From the IMG/VR virus record IMGVR_UViG_2908567220_000001, positions 1 through 37,322 of that record: 37,322 bases of DNA. One strand, given 5' to 3'. The position numbers and the translations under genes were made by a program. Source of the DNA: a virus. Its lineage: Duplodnaviria; Heunggongvirae; Uroviricota; Caudoviricetes. The notes below the pieces were generated by a model. That model searched no databases and was not told the origin of the DNA. It saw nothing but the letters and a program-made list of their open reading frames with translations. Below are positions 912-17,866 of this stretch, piece after piece (the first letter of the stretch is position 1; each line of letters opens with the position of its first letter).

Positions 912-3469
912 CGTCCACCTCCGGAGAACAGACCACCATCGCGCATCTGTGCCTGGATTTCATCACGGGCACCCTTGCGGGCCATGTCATACACCGCCTT
1001 CATCATCTGTGGACCTGGCAGACCATTCGTACCGTCGTTCTGAATCACCACGTTGTTGTTCTGCTCAAACCTGATACCCTCTGAACGCCGCATTTGCGCC
1101 GGACTTCCGGTGCCACCGACATAACCGCCGGTGGCATAGCCGCGCATCAGCCGGTAGAGATTTCCCACGCCAATCCGGCTGGTTGCCTCCTTCGTGAAGA
1201 CAAATTCACCACGGTGAACAATCCCCGCTGGCTCATATTTGCCGCCGGTTCCCGTAAATCCTCCGGTTGCAAAATGGAGTTTCGCCGCAGCGGCCTGAAT
1301 GGCTGTACCGCCTGACGCGGATGCGCCGCCACCAACAGCCCCGCCAATAGCGCTGCCGATACTCCCGACAATCCCCACCATTGCCTGCTTAAGCAGAATT
1401 TCTGTCATCATGGACAGCACGGAACGGGTGAAGCTGCGCCAGTTCTGTTCACTGCCGGTCAGCATCGCCGCCATATTCTGCGCAATACCATCAAAGGTCT
1501 GCGTGGCAGCACTTTTAACCTGCGACATACTGTCCGTGGCACTCTCTTCCCACTCACTCCAGCCTGACCTGAGGCCTGCCATCCAGCTCCCGCGAAGCTG
1601 GTCTTCAGCCGCCCAGGTCTTTTTCTGCTCTGACATGACGCTATTCAGCGCCAGCGGATTATCGCCATACTGTTCCTTCAGGCGCTGTTCCGTGGCGTCC
1701 CGCGCTGCCTGCCGGTCAGTCAGCCCCCGGTTTTTCGCCTCAATGGCTGCCCGTTTTGCCCGTTGCTGCTGTGCGAATTTATCCGCCTGCTGCGCCAGCG
1801 CGTTCAGGTGCTCCTGATACGTGACCTTATCGCCAAGTGCAGCCAGCTGGCGTTTGTACTCCAGCGTCTCATCTTTATGCGCCAGCAGGGATTTCTCCTG
1901 TGCGGACAGCTGGCGACGTTGCGCCGCCTCCTCCAGTACCGCGAACTGACTTTCTGCCTTCCACAAATCCCGGCGCTGCTGGCTGATTTTCTCATTCGCT
2001 CCGGCATGCTTCTCCAGCGTCCGGAGTTCTGCCTGAAGCGTCAGCAGGGCAGCATGAGCACTGTCTTCCTGACGATCGCCCGCAGACACCTTCACGCCGG
2101 ACTGTTTCGGCTTTTTCAGCGTCGCTTCATAATCCTTTTTCGCCGCCGCCATCAGCGTGTTGTAATCCGCCTGCAGGATTTTCCCGTCTTTCAGTGCCTT
2201 GTTCAGTTCTTCCTGACGGGCGGTATATTTCTCCAGCGGCGTCTGCAGCCGTTCGTAAGCCTTCTGCGCCTCTTCGGTATATTTCAGCCGTGACGCTTCG
2301 GTATCGCTCTGCTGCTGCGCATTTTTGTCCTGTTGAGTCTGCTGCTCAGCCTTCTTTCGGGCGGCTTCAAGCGCAAGACGGGCCTTTTCACGATCATCCC
2401 AGTAACGCGCCCGCGCTTCATCGTTAACAAAATAATCATCCTTGCGCAGATTCCAGATGTCGTCTGCTTTCTTAAACGCAGCCTCTGCCTTAATCAGCAT
2501 CTCCTGCGCGGTATCAGGACGACCAATATCCAGCACCGCATCCCACATGGATTTGAATGCCCGCGCAGTCCTGTCTGCCCAGGTCTCCAGCGTGCCCATG
2601 TTCTCTTTCAGGCGGCGGGTCTGGTCATCAAACCCTTTCGTTGCGGCCTCGTTCGCCGCCTGCAATGCCCCGGCTTCATCGCCGGAACGCTGCAACTGAG
2701 CAACATACGCAATCTGCTCCGCCGTCACGTTATGGAACTGGCGTGCCATCGCCGTCAGCCCCGACGTCGGGTCTGTGGTCAGCTTCCCGAAGGCTTCAGC
2801 GACCTTGTCCACCTCCACGCCGGATGCAGAGGAGAAACGCGCCACACTCTGGCTGATGGACGCAATCTGAGCCTCACCGCTTACCCCCGCCTTAACCAGT
2901 GCGCTGAGTGACTCGCTGGTCTGGTTAAACGTCAGCCCTGCCGCCTGCCCGGCTCTGGACAGGACCAGCATACGATCTGCCGTCAGTCCCGCCTGATTGC
3001 CGGAAAGGACCAGCGTTTTATTGAAATTGGACAGGGTTGAGTCACCCTGATACCAGGCATACGCCAGCGCACCGGTCGCCACCGCCAGCGAAGTGATACC
3101 AACCATCGGCAGGGTGATCGCACCGGTAAGCCCCCTGAACATGGGGATCATCCCGCCGAAGGAGTCCTTCACCTGACCACCCTGTTGCAGCAGGATGAGC
3201 CACGGATTCTGCCCCCCTGCAAGCTGCGTGGCCACGTCGGTGAACTGCGCAGGCAGCATACGCATGGCAGCTTTATACTGCCCGACGGAAATCCCCGCTT
3301 TCTGTGCAGCCAGCGCCTGCCGGTTCATTGACTGTTCAACGACTGCCGCTGTTTTTTTCGCATCACTTTCCGTACCGGAAAAATGACGCCTGACTCTGGC
3401 CATCTGCTCGTCAAATCTGGCCGCATCCAGACTTAAATCAACGACCAGATCGCCTACCGGTTCAGCCAT
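908..3469 (-). CDS. H: tail tape measure protein H
   Basis: 853-aa ORF (lambda gpH length), Ala/Gln/Lys-rich coiled-coil core, Gly-rich C-terminus; lies between G/T and M. Confidence 0.9.
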   Translation of the reverse strand: MAEPVGDLVVDLSLDAARFDEQMARVRRHFSGTESDAKKTAAVVEQSMNRQALAAQKAGISVGQYKAAMRMLPAQFTDVATQLAGGQNPWLILLQQGGQVKDSFGGMIPMFRGLTGAITLPMVGITSLAVATGALAYAWYQGDSTLSNFNKTLVLSGNQAGLTADRMLVLSRAGQAAGLTFNQTSESLSALVKAGVSGEAQIASISQSVARFSSASGVEVDKVAEAFGKLTTDPTSGLTAMARQFHNVTAEQIAYVAQLQRSGDEAGALQAANEAATKGFDDQTRRLKENMGTLETWADRTARAFKSMWDAVLDIGRPDTAQEMLIKAEAAFKKADDIWNLRKDDYFVNDEARARYWDDREKARLALEAARKKAEQQTQQDKNAQQQSDTEASRLKYTEEAQKAYERLQTPLEKYTARQEELNKALKDGKILQADYNTLMAAAKKDYEATLKKPKQSGVKVSAGDRQEDSAHAALLTLQAELRTLEKHAGANEKISQQRRDLWKAESQFAVLEEAAQRRQLSAQEKSLLAHKDETLEYKRQLAALGDKVTYQEHLNALAQQADKFAQQQRAKRAAIEAKNRGLTDRQAARDATEQRLKEQYGDNPLALNSVMSEQKKTWAAEDQLRGSWMAGLRSGWSEWEESATDSMSQVKSAATQTFDGIAQNMAAMLTGSEQNWRSFTRSVLSMMTEILLKQAMVGIVGSIGSAIGGAVGGGASASGGTAIQAAAAKLHFATGGFTGTGGKYEPAGIVHRGEFVFTKEATSRIGVGNLYRLMRGYATGGYVGGTGSPAQMRRSEGIRFEQNNNVVIQNDGTNGLPGPQMMKAVYDMARKGARDEIQAQMRDGGLFSGGGR

Positions 3470-9593: not shown

Positions 9594-13274
<3,681 letters not shown>

Positions 13275-14400: not shown

Positions 14401-15023
14401 CATGGTGTTCACAGAACACGCAGTTACCGGACACATCAGTTTTCCATTCGCTCCCCGGCAGTACAGGCTTCCCCTCTGACGGGATAGCCTGAAAAAATAA
14501 CACAGAAAATTATTTGTTATAATTAATATAACTTACTCAAAAAAAAGCGACGAGAAAATCAGCATCAACGAACAATAAGCGCCAATACGTGATAACAAAT
14601 GGCAGCCATATTTATCTGCAGTATAAGCAATGGACAGGATAACCACACCAGAAACCGTCAGCATAAAATCCATTTGAACTTCCCCGAACAAAATCGACTC
14701 ATCTAAAGATTTACAGCTCTTTTTATTATCAATATGTTAAAAGTAAAATAAACAGATGTTCAATAACACGAATACAAAAACGTGCTGAAATTCAATGAAT
14801 CCATTTCTGTGTCATCAATTAATAGTGATAAACATCCGGCTTCTTCCACCATCGCACCGGACAGGCGACTATGAGGGGACAACGCCGCGCTCCGTTAACG
14901 CGGTAAACCCCGGTGTGTATCGTTTTTGATTATCCCCGCACACTCGCGCAGAGGAGTCTCCCTGTCGGGCTGCGGTCTCTGTTAATGAGGGAATACAGCG
15001 ACGATACGGCGCATCAACAAAAC

Positions 15024-15482
15024 TTATTTCAGGCACTGAGTGCGGATATAGTCCTGTGCCCCTTCCAGTTGCTTGTGCATCGTCATCAGCCGCTCTCTGA
15101 GGGTGAAATAATCCCGTGTAACGGTGTCTGCCAGTTGGGGGCCGGTTGCATTATCCACGCCGGAGGTGGTGGGGGCTTCACGCACGGAGCCTGGACAGGT
15201 GGCGTTGATCCGCAGGCGCTTACGACCAGCGGCAACATCAGCGCGCAGAGTTTCATTTTCAGCTCTCGCATCGGATAATTCCCTCGAGTATTTTGCATCG
15301 AGCGCAGCAACATCGCGCTGGCGCACCTGCATATCAGTAATGGTTGCGTTCGCCAGCTTCAGTTCACTGGCTTTGTTATCACGCTGCGCTTTGTAGGTAA
15401 TCGCGTTATCACGGTAATGGTCTGTTGCCATCCACAGCGCACCACAGGCCACCAGCAGAATAACGATAAACGCGGAAAGCAT
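15024..15482 (-). CDS. Rz: i-spanin Rz
   Basis: N-terminal TM segment then coiled-coil ([14 protein letters not shown]...), lambda Rz-like; ATG at 15482 gives 152 aa; alternative GTG at 15497 overlaps the upstream ORF stop. Confidence 0.8.
15086..15271 (-). CDS. Rz1: o-spanin Rz1 lipoprotein, embedded in the +1 frame of Rz
   Basis: [22 protein letters not shown]... lipobox Cys, Pro-rich (PPPPPAW); entirely inside Rz. Confidence 0.75.
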
Positions 15483-15493
15483 TCGGTTTATGT

Positions 15494-15625
15494 TCACCCC
15501 AGCAACCCCGACGAAGACAACATCATCCAGGCCATGGAAAGAAAAAGAGCAACCAGCATTAGTGAAAATGAAATGCCGACAATTACACAGAGGATCTTCG
15601 CCAGCGTTATGAGTTTGTCTGACAT
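15494..15625 (-). CDS. small hydrophobic membrane protein (43 aa), function unknown
   Basis: ATG at 15625 with [45 protein letters not shown]...; stop overlaps the Rz GTG. Confidence 0.5.
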
Positions 15626-15639
15626 GCTTAATCCTCCCT

Positions 15640-15822
15640 TCACGATTTCAACGCAATGACCAGTTTTGCCAGCCCATACAGCATCGGGGACACAGCAACA
15701 CCGACCGCCACCCACTTAATGGCAAAAGCCAGTGCTCTGCTGATGTCATCAGTTACAGGCGCTTTCAGTTCAAGGCCATTTTTCATAGTCAACCTCAACA
15801 GAATTCGTTTATACTTCGCCAT
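15640..15822 (-). CDS. small tail-anchored membrane protein (60 aa), function unknown
   Basis: ATG at 15822 with AGGGAG RBS; basic N-terminus ([11 protein letters not shown]) and C-terminal hydrophobic segment ([22 protein letters not shown]). Confidence 0.5.
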
Positions 15823-15855
15823 GTTCTCCCTTGCCTTACTCAAGGTCAGAAACAC

Positions 15856-15888
15856 AAAACCCCGCTTGGTGCCAACAAACGGGGTTTT
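15856..15888. terminator. hairpin with 9-bp stem (AAAACCCCG / CGGGGTTTT), candidate bidirectional intrinsic terminator or attenuator
   Basis: Perfect 9-bp inverted repeat with 15-nt loop, T-rich tract on the plus side; sits between the endolysin stop and the small membrane genes. Confidence 0.4.
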
Positions 15889-15978
15889 TACTTTTATTCA
15901 CTTACGTTTCGCCAGTTCGCAGGATTTCGTGTTATCCGCCCGCGTGGCCATACCTTATTTTTCAGCAAAATATTCTGC

Positions 15979-16512
15979 TTATCTGTCGATACCCCAGCAC
16001 GCCAGCGCGCTCTCCTGGTCACGACGGGATACCTGACCGTAGCAGTTGTTTGAACGAATACGGCAGTCTCTGCCACCGTCCTTAATCCACCAGCGAATCG
16101 CCTCACACGCTCCCCTGCGATCACCTGCATTAATTCGTTTATAAAACGTCGACGGAAAACACTTACCGGGGCCAATGTTGTACGGACAGAATGACGCGAT
16201 CCCCGCTTTCTGGGGTTCACTCAATGGCACTCTGATGTTTTTCTCCACCCATGCCAGCGCCTTATCACGCTCAATGGCGTTAACCCGGTCGCATTTTTCC
16301 TTCGACAACTTCATGCCCGGAACGACAGGTTTGCCATCCACCAGGATGGCACCGCGGCAGATGGTCCAGATACCCGCGCCATCACGGTATGCCGTGGTGT
16401 GGTTACCTTCCTTTTCATCCAGAAACTGGTCGAGAATGTCAGGCGCAGGCGCACCAGCGGCAATCAGCGCCAGAACGGCAGCCGACAGGCCGTATCTGAT
16501 TTTTGCGTTCAT
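15979..16512 (-). CDS. SAR endolysin (T4-lysozyme-like GH24 muramidase)
   Basis: 177-aa ORF; Ala/Gly-rich N-terminal signal-anchor-release segment (LSAAVLALIAAGAPAP); E...D...T catalytic spacing (KEG, RDG, WTI); downstream of a pinholin. Confidence 0.85.
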   Translation of the reverse strand: MNAKIRYGLSAAVLALIAAGAPAPDILDQFLDEKEGNHTTAYRDGAGIWTICRGAILVDGKPVVPGMKLSKEKCDRVNAIERDKALAWVEKNIRVPLSEPQKAGIASFCPYNIGPGKCFPSTFYKRINAGDRRGACEAIRWWIKDGGRDCRIRSNNCYGQVSRRDQESALACWGIDR

Positions 16513-16617
16513 GGATATTTATCAGGATTTATCGGTTTCTGAGCCCTGGATATGTTTATCAGTTCCAGCCTGTTGCCTCAGGCTGCTAACAGGTCAATAC
16601 AATCATGAGGATTATTT

Positions 16618-16890
16618 ATGGACAATAACACCATTTCTCTACAGGAGTTGCTCGACAGCATTTCCAGGCTTCGGGAAGACGTGAATACCCTTACCGTCGC
16701 CTTCTCATATCTGGCATTCTCAATTCCAAGGGAACAGATGCAATCAACGCTGGCATCAATCCAGTTTGAATCATGCAATCCCAAATGGTCTCAGAAACAA
16801 CAAGACTCTTTCAGGCGGCTTGCTGTATTACTGGATGAAAAATATGCTGGTAAAATTACCATTTCGGCGGACTCTTCAGAGAACCCGTAA
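16618..16890 (+). CDS. hypothetical protein (90 aa), opposite strand inside the lysis cassette
   Basis: ATG at 16618 with GAGG RBS about 7 nt upstream; weak hairpin plus T-run after the stop; no recognised motif. Confidence 0.45.
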   Translation: MDNNTISLQELLDSISRLREDVNTLTVAFSYLAFSIPREQMQSTLASIQFESCNPKWSQKQQDSFRRLAVLLDEKYAGKITISADSSENP

Positions 16891-17200
16891 TTATTCCCGG
16901 TAGTTTTCCTCTGTAGGTTATCAACACATCCTGCGCCTCTAAAATTACGGGGCGCTTTTCCGGCGACTGCTCATCCCCTTCACATAACCCGGCAGCAACA
17001 TCCAGGAAGACCTGTCTGATGCTCCTTCTGGCTGCTGCCTCATAAAACTCCAGCGCGGCACCTTCAACACGGTCCAGCGAGATGTCCAGGTCAAAAATTT
17101 CACCGTCAAAGCGTTTTTTGTCCCGTAACGCTAAAGTTACCGTAACTTTATTCTCAAAATTGCGGATCCCTTTCACAATCAGTTCATAGTTTTGAGTCAT
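16856..17200 (-). CDS. DUF1327-like lysis-cassette protein (YdfR-like)
   Basis: 114-aa ORF directly downstream of the holin; N-terminus MTQNYELIVKGIRNFENKVTV... resembles recalled YdfR-family proteins; C-terminus may be altered. Confidence 0.65.
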   Translation of the reverse strand: MTQNYELIVKGIRNFENKVTVTLALRDKKRFDGEIFDLDISLDRVEGAALEFYEAAARRSIRQVFLDVAAGLCEGDEQSPEKRPVILEAQDVLITYRGKLPGIITGSLKSPPKW

Positions 17201-17204
17201 TGAA

Positions 17205-17420
17205 TTACTCTCCCCGTGCAGCCTTACGCTTGTCTTCTCTGATTTTGAAGTACAGATTTGTCAGATAAGTCAGGAAGCCCAGAACCAGACTCCCCAGCAC
17301 ACCAATCGCAGCCCACTGTGACGGACTGACCTGATCAAGCCACTGTAAAAACCAGTAGCCAGCACTGCCTGCGGAGGTGCCATAGGCAATGCCCGTTGAA
17401 ATTTTGTCCATGGATTTCAT
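17205..17420 (-). CDS. S: pinholin, phage-21 S21 type, dual-start motif
   Basis: 71-aa [66 protein letters not shown]...; matches recalled S21; Met1/Met4 dual start; GGAGG RBS. Confidence 0.9.
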
Positions 17421-17489
17421 AGCCTCACCTCCGCAAATAACGGATGGCGTAGTTTTACACTGAGAAATGAAAGGGATTTGAAAAGAAAA

Positions 17490-17505
17490 GCCCGCAAAAG
17501 CGGGC
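17490..17505 (-). terminator. rho-independent terminator hairpin (GCCCGC-TTTT-GCGGGC plus U-tract on minus strand)
   Basis: Perfect 6-bp GC stem, 4-nt loop, followed on the minus strand by TTTTCTTTTC; between tRNA-Gly and the holin. Confidence 0.6.
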
Positions 17506-17712
17506 GAAACAATATATACAGTAAGGAAAGCACTCTATCCAACAAACCACCCACAGTTAATCGGAATAAAAGCAGAGTGCTTATGAATGATCGCCTGCCC
17601 GAAGGTTAGTATTTCTGCACAGCAATTTTGCTAAAAAAAGCGATCATTCATAACTTAAACGTCTTTCAGTCACTCCGGGATTTCCCATCATCGCAGACTG
17701 AAAGACTCTAAC

Positions 17713-17787
<75 letters not shown>

Positions 17788-17790
17788 ATA

Positions 17791-17866
<76 letters not shown>

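Follow-up and report, generated by a model that had tools for sequence, protein, structure and literature searches.

Two separable small genes between the endolysin and Rz genes of a phage lysis cassette, and a predicted antisense RNA at the start of one of them

What do two small open reading frames (ORFs) lying between the endolysin and spanin genes contribute to a phage lysis cassette? This question is raised by the tailed-phage record IMGVR_UViG_2908567220_000001 (Caudoviricetes), a stretch of 37,322 nt that we call the window and whose positions serve as coordinates throughout. The cassette occupies the minus strand in the order pinholin, YdfR gene, endolysin, ORF-A, ORF-B and Rz/Rz1, ORF-A and ORF-B being our names for the two small ORFs. 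A sequence-only reading of this DNA had placed two small ORFs between the endolysin and Rz, and its coordinates and description proved correct by sequence, PGAP annotation and PHROG match. Our comparative analysis suggests that both ORFs encode late-operon peptides of the inner membrane that tune lysis and that ORF-A is silenced in lysogens, an explanation to which we assign a probability of about 40%. The two ORFs and the elements predicted around the ORF-A start are as follows.

15640-15822, minus strand: ORF-A, 60 aa (PGAP annotation, PHROG match, ratio of non-synonymous to synonymous substitution rates, dN/dS)
15494-15625, minus strand: ORF-B, 43 aa (PGAP annotation, PHROG match, tree-based ratio)
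15856-15888, no strand assigned: GC-rich hairpin between an A-run and a T-run, terminator-like in both directions, 33 nt upstream of the ORF-A start
15786-15815, plus strand: predicted antisense sigma-70-like promoter, TAGTCA-18-TATACT, within ORF-A codons 3-13 (promoter scan)
15822 to about 15898, plus strand: predicted cis-antisense RNA of about 75 nt, starting near the ORF-A start codon and ending at the hairpin and a U-run

Coding evidence and predicted peptides

Both ORFs are already known as hypothetical genes. RefSeq/PGAP lists them as WP_001151822.1 and WP_001280932.1 (O104:H4 strain 2011C-3493), the annotation of Sakai prophage Sp14 as ECs_2740 and ECs_5740, and their PHROG families, phrog_1115 (E 3e-42) and phrog_4906 (E 2e-23), carry no assigned function; the PHROG assignment of ORF-A was 1115/4493. 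No paper on either ORF came up when the literature was searched by accession, locus tag and peptide words. The good ribosome-binding sites described in the sequence-only reading were confirmed: Shine-Dalgarno (SD) sites were read directly upstream of both ATG codons, GGGAG three bases 5' of that of ORF-A and GGGAGG seven bases 5' of that of ORF-B.

The pooled Nei-Gojobori dN/dS of ORF-A was 0.18, against 1.0-8.4 in the other two frames, and it fell to 0.11 in the core of the protein (codons 23-60), for which the Salmonella and tail-associated homologues were included. These ratios indicate that ORF-A is a real gene under strong purifying selection. For ORF-B, we counted changes by parsimony on a neighbour-joining tree of 36 of the 43 distinct nucleotide variants, namely those that were intact 43-codon ORFs with the same stop. 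The ratio was 0.51 in frame (49.5 synonymous and 67.5 non-synonymous changes) versus 0.96 and 1.11 off frame. Nine residues (K4, I6, K10, C13, V14, F20, V25, W33 and L36) were invariant among 28 distinct proteins and the substitutions elsewhere were conservative; in Shiga toxin (Stx) phages, a block of about 80% nucleotide identity coincided exactly with the 132-bp ORF-B. A few variants were frameshifted. Judged by these patterns, ORF-B is very probably a gene, with a weaker signal than that of ORF-A.

AlphaFold2 predicted helices in both peptides, in support of the sequence-only description of them as small membrane proteins. The ORF-A model comprises a basic helix (residues 2-15), a Gly/Pro hinge and a long helix (residues 22-59), with a predicted local distance difference test score (pLDDT) of 79. 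Its net charge is +7, with a basic N-terminus and a hydrophobic C-terminal helix; by a simple Hessa-scale sum this helix is marginal (+3.9) and nearer to the signal-anchor-release (SAR) segment of the endolysin (+5.4) than to a classical transmembrane domain. The ORF-B model is a single helix (residues 2-38, pLDDT 89), and the same sum gave a strongly hydrophobic transmembrane segment at residues 11-29 (-3.8 kcal/mol). ORF-B is thus predicted to be a single-pass inner-membrane peptide, probably with its N-terminus inside. As to a possible origin of ORF-B as a remnant of the N-terminal transmembrane domain of Rz, the likeness between the two is one of generic hydrophobicity only.

A profile search against 1.84 billion representatives gathered the ORF-A family into 22 clusters at 50% identity, confined to Enterobacterales. 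Its members share an optional leader, Y-(K/R)-x-h-h-R-h-R-h, followed by MKNGLE-x-DAP and a helix that runs from AFAI(K/R) to ALKS or IRWW. In the window, M13 (ATG at 15786-15784) is a potential internal start for a 48-aa form. Its SD, (G)GAGG, lies six bases 5' of the ATG, and its nucleotides are kept even though the encoded residues vary (LRLT versus VEAN/VEVN), so that the 48-aa form is probably made. We considered whether the N-terminal 12 residues of ORF-A were misannotated and rejected this, since most homologues keep an SD and a start codon there. The M13 SD is even better conserved than that of the first start, and both forms are possible.

The junctions of ORF-B link it to its neighbours. 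Its ATG lies 14 nt past the ORF-A stop, and its own stop lies within GGGGTGA, where it overlaps the GTG (as GTGA) that opens the Rz frame. In our junction survey the 3' end of ORF-B was always GGGGTGA. The sequence-only reading had ORF-B coupled to the Rz start, and this was borne out: in seven related loci the alternative, downstream ATG of Rz is ATT, and therefore the GTG overlapping the ORF-B stop must start Rz. Starting at this GTG gives Rz an N-terminal Arg, as expected for an N-in membrane anchor by inference from lambda Rz. Other Rz variants start at an ATG seven bases past the ORF-B stop, with the G-rich end of ORF-B serving as SD. The ORF-B start is joined to the upstream gene as well, by a 1-nt overlap with the antirepressor gene ant or at a distance of 2-14 nt after ORF-A or D, a 47-aa peptide gene found elsewhere in the same place. 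These junctions indicate that the upstream gene, ORF-B and Rz form a translationally coupled chain.

Neither peptide resembled a family of known function. Pfam hmmscan at E values up to 1 returned no holin, spanin or toxin family for ORF-A or ORF-B (a DUF3930 match for ORF-B, E 0.08, was below the cutoff and was ignored), and NCBIfam and PADLOC gave no defence or superinfection-exclusion match. PDB sequence profiles and Foldseek against BFVD likewise gave no relative of known function or solved structure for either peptide.

Hairpin and predicted antisense RNA at the ORF-A start

In each of the eight contexts compared, which comprised lysis, tail tube and tail assembly chaperone, baseplate and tail-fibre assembly genes, the ORF-A homologue pointed the same way as the late genes on either side. 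Seven of the eight showed a GC hairpin, preceded by an A-run and followed by a T-run, about 20-70 nt 5' of the start of the ORF-A-family gene. The stem was kept by compensatory changes (9 pairs, 2 of them compensated; alignment A7). Read in the antisense direction, the hairpin was followed by a long U-run in 7/7 cases. In the tail-fibre contexts the upstream gene already has a separate terminator, so that the second hairpin is redundant for sense termination. A terminator was also found downstream of the ORF-A homologue in loci L166 and L339.

The promoter scan flagged a sigma-70-like promoter on the antisense strand in 6/6 regions scanned, each time at the corresponding position of the alignment, and the -10 element was TATACT or TATAAT in seven of eight contexts. 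The elements in five related loci were as follows.

L163: TAGTCA-18-TATACT
L166: TTGGCC-16-TATACT
L337: TAGTCA-18-TATAAT, 10/12
L338: TGGTCA-18-TATAAT, 10/12
L339: TTTACC-16-TATACT

The residues encoded over the -10 element vary (K or N before a Tyr; K, N, T or S after it), whereas the bases TAnnnT are fixed: the Tyr codon is always TAT, and the first base of the following codon stays A although its residue changes. An RNA from this promoter to the hairpin would span the ORF-A start codon, the anti-SD (CUCCC) and the 5' leader, and would measure 73-105 nt across contexts. We therefore predict from these alignments that ORF-A carries a cis-antisense RNA over its ribosome-binding site.

Rfam does not hold the predicted RNA as a family; the only match was a sub-threshold one to the rimP leader (15824-15898), which also overlaps the antisense-strand region in L163. 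No comparable antisense module was seen for ORF-B. The window scan found no minus-strand sigma-70-like promoter across 14900-17700, and no sense promoter was found upstream of ORF-A homologues by scan in five other contexts or, by eye and scan together, in seven contexts. Papers on prophage small RNAs of enterohaemorrhagic E. coli place the Pas RNAs upstream of the holin gene, not between endolysin and Rz. Tree et al. 2014 contained no lysis-gene terms, and AgvB and AsxR could thus not be placed from that paper.

Two side observations concern the related loci. Directly 3' of the tail-fibre-associated homologue, L339 carries a second unit of double hairpin and antisense promoter (3233-3374; TTCACA-16-TAAAAT, 10/12), which suggests a tandem duplication of the whole unit. 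In the Salmonella prophage L163, an Rfam STnc100 match above the gathering score (67.8 bits) lies at 2653-2860, between a Q-like antiterminator gene and the holin gene.

Distribution of the two genes and layout of the cassette

Among 5426 complete E. coli genomes, ORF-B was present in 1750 (4658 places, up to 11 per genome) and ORF-A in 1598 (1913 places), while an endolysin of this type occurred at 11153 places in 4429 genomes. Because their places are far fewer than those of the endolysin, ORF-A and ORF-B are common but optional. The plaque-forming phages PhiR5_2 and PhiR12_x carry both ORFs. Stx phages (VT2-Sakai, P13374, phi24B and many others) have the order ant, ORF-B, Rz with no ORF-A, and nearly every matching sequenced Stx phage had ORF-B. 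ORF-A is present in O104:H4, in O157 Sakai Sp14 and in ATCC 25922. In ST131 and E2348/69, ORF-B is followed by a truncated ORF-A (MTVTDD...), whose GTG start overlaps the ORF-B stop, then by a 28-aa relative, C (MSAELIRAMAFAIRIVAIAVLVWAIRWW), and Rz. Elsewhere the same gap holds relative D, a 231-aa gene or DNA methyltransferase genes. Two of the latter lie between ORF-B and Rz, at L138 3337-4272 (311 aa, with a DPPY motif) and L284 1376-2143 (255 aa), the lengths being our reading of the sequences.

The distinct slot sequences comprised 51 with ORF-A and ORF-B, 40 with ant and ORF-B and 12 with D and ORF-B, the rest being mixtures; the sample was fetched via ORF-A or ORF-B and is hence biased towards these two. 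The slot of K-12 Qin was found to hold no insert, the endolysin gene R overlapping Rz by 4 nt. Natural cassettes lack one ORF or the other or carry a frameshifted ORF-B. Taken together, these arrangements indicate that, in lambdoid prophages of the pinholin and SAR endolysin type, the gap between R and Rz is a cargo hotspot and that ORF-A and ORF-B are separate, mobile modules. The premise of the sequence-only reading that no genes lie between endolysin and Rz in canonical cassettes was too strict, since the gap often carries cargo such as ant or DNA methyltransferase genes, and in the window two more genes intervene between holin and endolysin. Its suggestion of a toxin pair did not hold either: ORF-B occurs without ORF-A in Stx phages and ORF-A without ORF-B in Salmonella and at non-lysis sites, and an obligate two-component system was rejected on the same grounds.

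We also noted fused or hybrid ORFs in which the 5' part of ORF-B, or an alternate frame of it, is joined to the C-terminal helix of ORF-A (P0093; L118, L069 and L004), and others (P0117) in which the ORF-A N-terminus has a C-type IRWW tail; such hybrids imply that the small peptide genes recombine with one another. Scanning contigs of one genome per species for ORF-B gave a sole match, a 328-bp contig labelled Xanthomonas pisi (L173), which is most likely contamination from E. coli or a phage.

Outside this cassette, ORF-A occurred alone in Salmonella between an R21-like SAR endolysin and Rz, together with an HP1-type holin. In Salmonella and E. coli, homologues also follow tail-fibre assembly genes, sometimes as tandem paralogues. 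A Klebsiella myovirus prophage has one in its tail and baseplate cluster, shortly before the sheath-initiator and baseplate J genes, and a P2-like Enterobacter prophage has one between the tail tube and tail assembly chaperone genes. On the Yersinia enterocolitica chromosome, a prophage remnant is reduced to an ORF-A homologue and Rz (L334-L336, 3001-3601). The Yersinia homologue has 49 aa, ends in RWW and lies directly 5' of Rz, with host genes and an IS110 element adjoining; the exact protein is indexed in >1600 collection blocks. Its retention may reflect domestication.

The remaining features of the cassette are as follows.

17205-17420, minus strand: S21-type pinholin, first gene of the cassette (PF04971, E 1e-35)
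16856-17200, minus strand: DUF1327/YdfR gene
16618-16890, plus strand: convergent 90-aa ORF (phrog_2411, E 2e-58; hypothetical in RefSeq relatives)
15979-16512, minus strand: endolysin, an RrrQ-type phage lysozyme with an N-terminal SAR-like segment (PF00959)
15889-15978, minus strand: conserved linker of about 90 bp, 3' of the endolysin stop (alignment A3)
15024-15497, minus strand: Rz (i-spanin), likely GTG start at 15497 (PF03245, E 7e-47; junction survey)
15086-15271, minus strand: Rz1 (o-spanin lipoprotein), within Rz in the +1 frame (PF06085, E 7e-20)

The YdfR gene and the convergent 90-aa ORF, whose 3' ends overlap, are cargo within the gap between holin and endolysin. The gap from endolysin to ORF-A is 156 bp long, with the terminator-like hairpin inside. 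The linker in this gap is common to the Stx phages with ant and is partly kept in Salmonella behind a different endolysin; it contains GGCGGATAACAC(G/A)AAATCC, which folds as a hairpin in Salmonella. The role of this stretch may lie in recombination, as a linker, or in regulation. An equivalent of Rz1 is annotated in Sakai as a 61-aa product.

Upstream of the holin gene lie two tRNA genes (17716-17866, minus strand; 73.8 and 63.4 bits), and between them and the S gene a strong terminator-like hairpin (17490-17508) resembles a tR'-type late leader. About 350 bp past Rz we noted a third small hydrophobic ORF (14533-14673, minus strand; MDFMLTVSGVVILSIAYTADKYGCHLLSRIGAYCSLMLIFSSLFFE, 46 aa from ATG), which corresponds to hypothetical WP_000347013.1 in the O104:H4 relative.

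Candidate roles and relation to known systems

Both ORFs lie on the late-operon strand without a detectable promoter of their own. We propose that in the lysogen the hairpin and the cis-antisense RNA over the ribosome-binding site would hold ORF-A silent, and that upon induction polymerase antiterminated by Q would read through from pR'. Both peptides would then be produced along with the pinholin, the endolysin tethered to the membrane and Rz/Rz1, and would act in the inner membrane, most likely by tuning the timing or efficiency of lysis; neither would be needed for lysis as such. ORF-A would be a membrane-active, probably toxic peptide, because silencing by an antisense RNA and a hairpin would imply a product harmful to the cell, and ORF-B a transmembrane peptide that also relays translation into Rz. 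Several features speak against expression of the proteins in lysogens: no sense promoter was found, a terminator stands upstream, an antisense promoter is predicted and the orientation strictly follows that of the late genes. Gene organisation thus favours a late, probably toxic or lysis-related role over exclusion by a lysogen-expressed protein. Going further, ORF-A may represent a new antisense-locked family of membrane toxins released only by late read-through and spread as a portable module among lysis and tail operons of enterobacterial prophages, with ORF-B as a hitherto unrecognised spanin-coupled lysis component of Stx and related phages, the two jointly timing lysis and the release of phage and Shiga toxin; we regard this fuller version as doubtful.

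Several points weigh against the proposal that the peptides tune lysis under antisense control. That ORF-A has homologues beyond lysis cassettes weakens the case for a role in lysis alone. The consensus matches behind the predicted antisense RNA cover 9-10 of 12 positions, and the conserved 40-nt block also holds the internal SD and coding sequence, which makes several causes of its conservation plausible. The truncated ORF-A copies after ORF-B (in ST131 and E2348/69-type cassettes) are without the antisense module. The module of the P2-like prophage sits within an essential tail operon, where an efficient sense terminator would do harm. As for ORF-B, purifying selection is modest and there is no third-position bias (variable columns 21/17/21).

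The same module can be read as a type I toxin-antitoxin system, in which an unstable antisense RNA would restrain a stable ORF-A toxin mRNA in the lysogen. Such a module would keep the prophage in place or, once host transcription stops, abort infection by other phages, the site in the cassette being incidental. ORF-A is small, basic and hydrophobic; the predicted antisense promoter and terminator over its SD and start are conserved in a SymE/SymR-like manner; the module is self-contained across phage types and occurs with tandem paralogues; and Yersinia enterocolitica keeps a homologue in a decayed prophage, found in >1600 collection blocks. On the other hand, six scanned contexts yielded no sense promoter, the terminator stands directly upstream of the SD, truncated copies occur without the RNA module, and no match to Hok, Ldr, Ibs, TisB, ShoB or Zor appeared in Pfam at E values up to 1 or in NCBIfam, for ORF-A or ORF-B. 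The ORF-A family is absent from the toxin families named in the consulted passages of the survey by Fozo et al. (PMC2887945). We consider such a system unlikely.

Rather less probable is that the peptides are lysogenic-conversion or superinfection-exclusion factors that block DNA entry or receptor function in the manner of HK97 gp15, T4 Imm or P22 SieA. Their slot also houses ant and DNA methyltransferase genes, of a kind typical of genetic conflict, ORF-A homologues adjoin tail-fibre genes, a classical moron site, and both peptides are predicted to lie in the inner membrane. Exclusion of related phages can also come from an antisense RNA made within a late operon of a prophage, as with STnc6030 of BTP1 (PMC7067206). 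This reading would call for expression in the lysogen, for which the scans revealed no promoter; both the terminator upstream and the antisense promoter point to a protein that is off there, no PADLOC, Pfam or NCBIfam match was obtained, and ORF-B is chain-coupled between late genes.

The least probable alternative is that ORF-B is a mere relay frame, its hydrophobicity tolerated rather than selected, which restored coupling into Rz after cargo had broken an endolysin-Rz overlap of the kind seen in K-12 Qin and in lambda: the GGGGTGA end does offer the next gene an SD-like run with a GTG or nearby ATG, the ORF-B start is itself coupled to ant, D or ORF-A, selection is weak (0.51) and frameshifted variants exist, but the nine invariant residues with conservative substitutions elsewhere, an in-frame ratio half that of the other frames, a length fixed at 43 codons and retention even where a methyltransferase or other peptide gene separates ORF-B from Rz all argue against it.

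What appears to be new here is that the pair splits into two independent modules, that the gap between R and Rz is a cargo slot and that ORF-A has a predicted antisense lock. ORF-B occurs in roughly one complete E. coli genome in three, and the two genes are extremely widespread among pathogenic E. coli and Stx phages. If the peptides tune the pathway of pinholin, SAR endolysin and spanin, burst timing would be affected and, in Stx phages, toxin release too. The antisense lock, if true, would be a compact, portable means of confining a toxic peptide to the lytic phase. Should the peptides be inert cargo, the gap would still be documented as a hotspot for recombination and cargo.

Among known systems, the locus comes closest to accessory lysis regulators, type I toxin-antitoxin systems and morons, and it departs from each in at least one defining respect. 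Like the morons lambda bor and lom and HK97 gp15, the genes are present or absent between conserved neighbours that are otherwise adjacent, as the overlap of R with Rz in K-12 Qin shows; ORF-A has a terminator hairpin, sits at classical moron sites and moves with it as a unit between unrelated phage backbones. Classical morons bring a promoter from which the prophage expresses them, whereas the scans here revealed no sense promoter and the layout points to enforced silence in lysogens.

The likeness to SymE/SymR and Hok/Sok lies in a small hydrophobic or basic peptide and a predicted short antisense RNA over the SD and start, with its own terminator; in SymE/SymR the antitoxin promoter lies within the 5' coding region of the toxin gene. 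The sizes also agree with those of type I toxins (below about 60 aa and hydrophobic), ORF-A having 60 or 48 aa and ORF-B 43 aa. Unlike such toxins, ORF-A has no detectable promoter of its own, a hairpin standing 20-70 nt before its start instead, and it is embedded and co-oriented in late operons with a terminator directly upstream. Its predicted RNA resembles STnc6030 as a prophage antisense RNA arising inside a late operon. STnc6030 of the Salmonella prophage BTP1 was detected experimentally, measures about 500-790 nt and targets injection and tailspike genes (PMC7067206), whereas the RNA here is predicted only, would measure about 75 nt and would target the very ORF that hosts it.

The accessory lysis regulators, namely the antiholins S107 and S21-71, T4 RI, P2 LysA and Mu gp25, the last described as a 'releasin' (PMC9239132), are likewise small proteins of the inner membrane whose genes lie within or next to the lysis cassette. 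Both ORFs are predicted to be of this general type, small membrane proteins in a lysis cassette with at least one transmembrane domain. They differ from holins and antiholins in lacking Pfam similarity and, for ORF-A, in having homologues in tail clusters, and the likeness to Mu gp25 is one of description only. Such regulators are co-expressed late and are dispensable for lysis, yet they set its timing, and the present cassette is of the pinholin and SAR endolysin type, in which membrane events govern the release of the endolysin.

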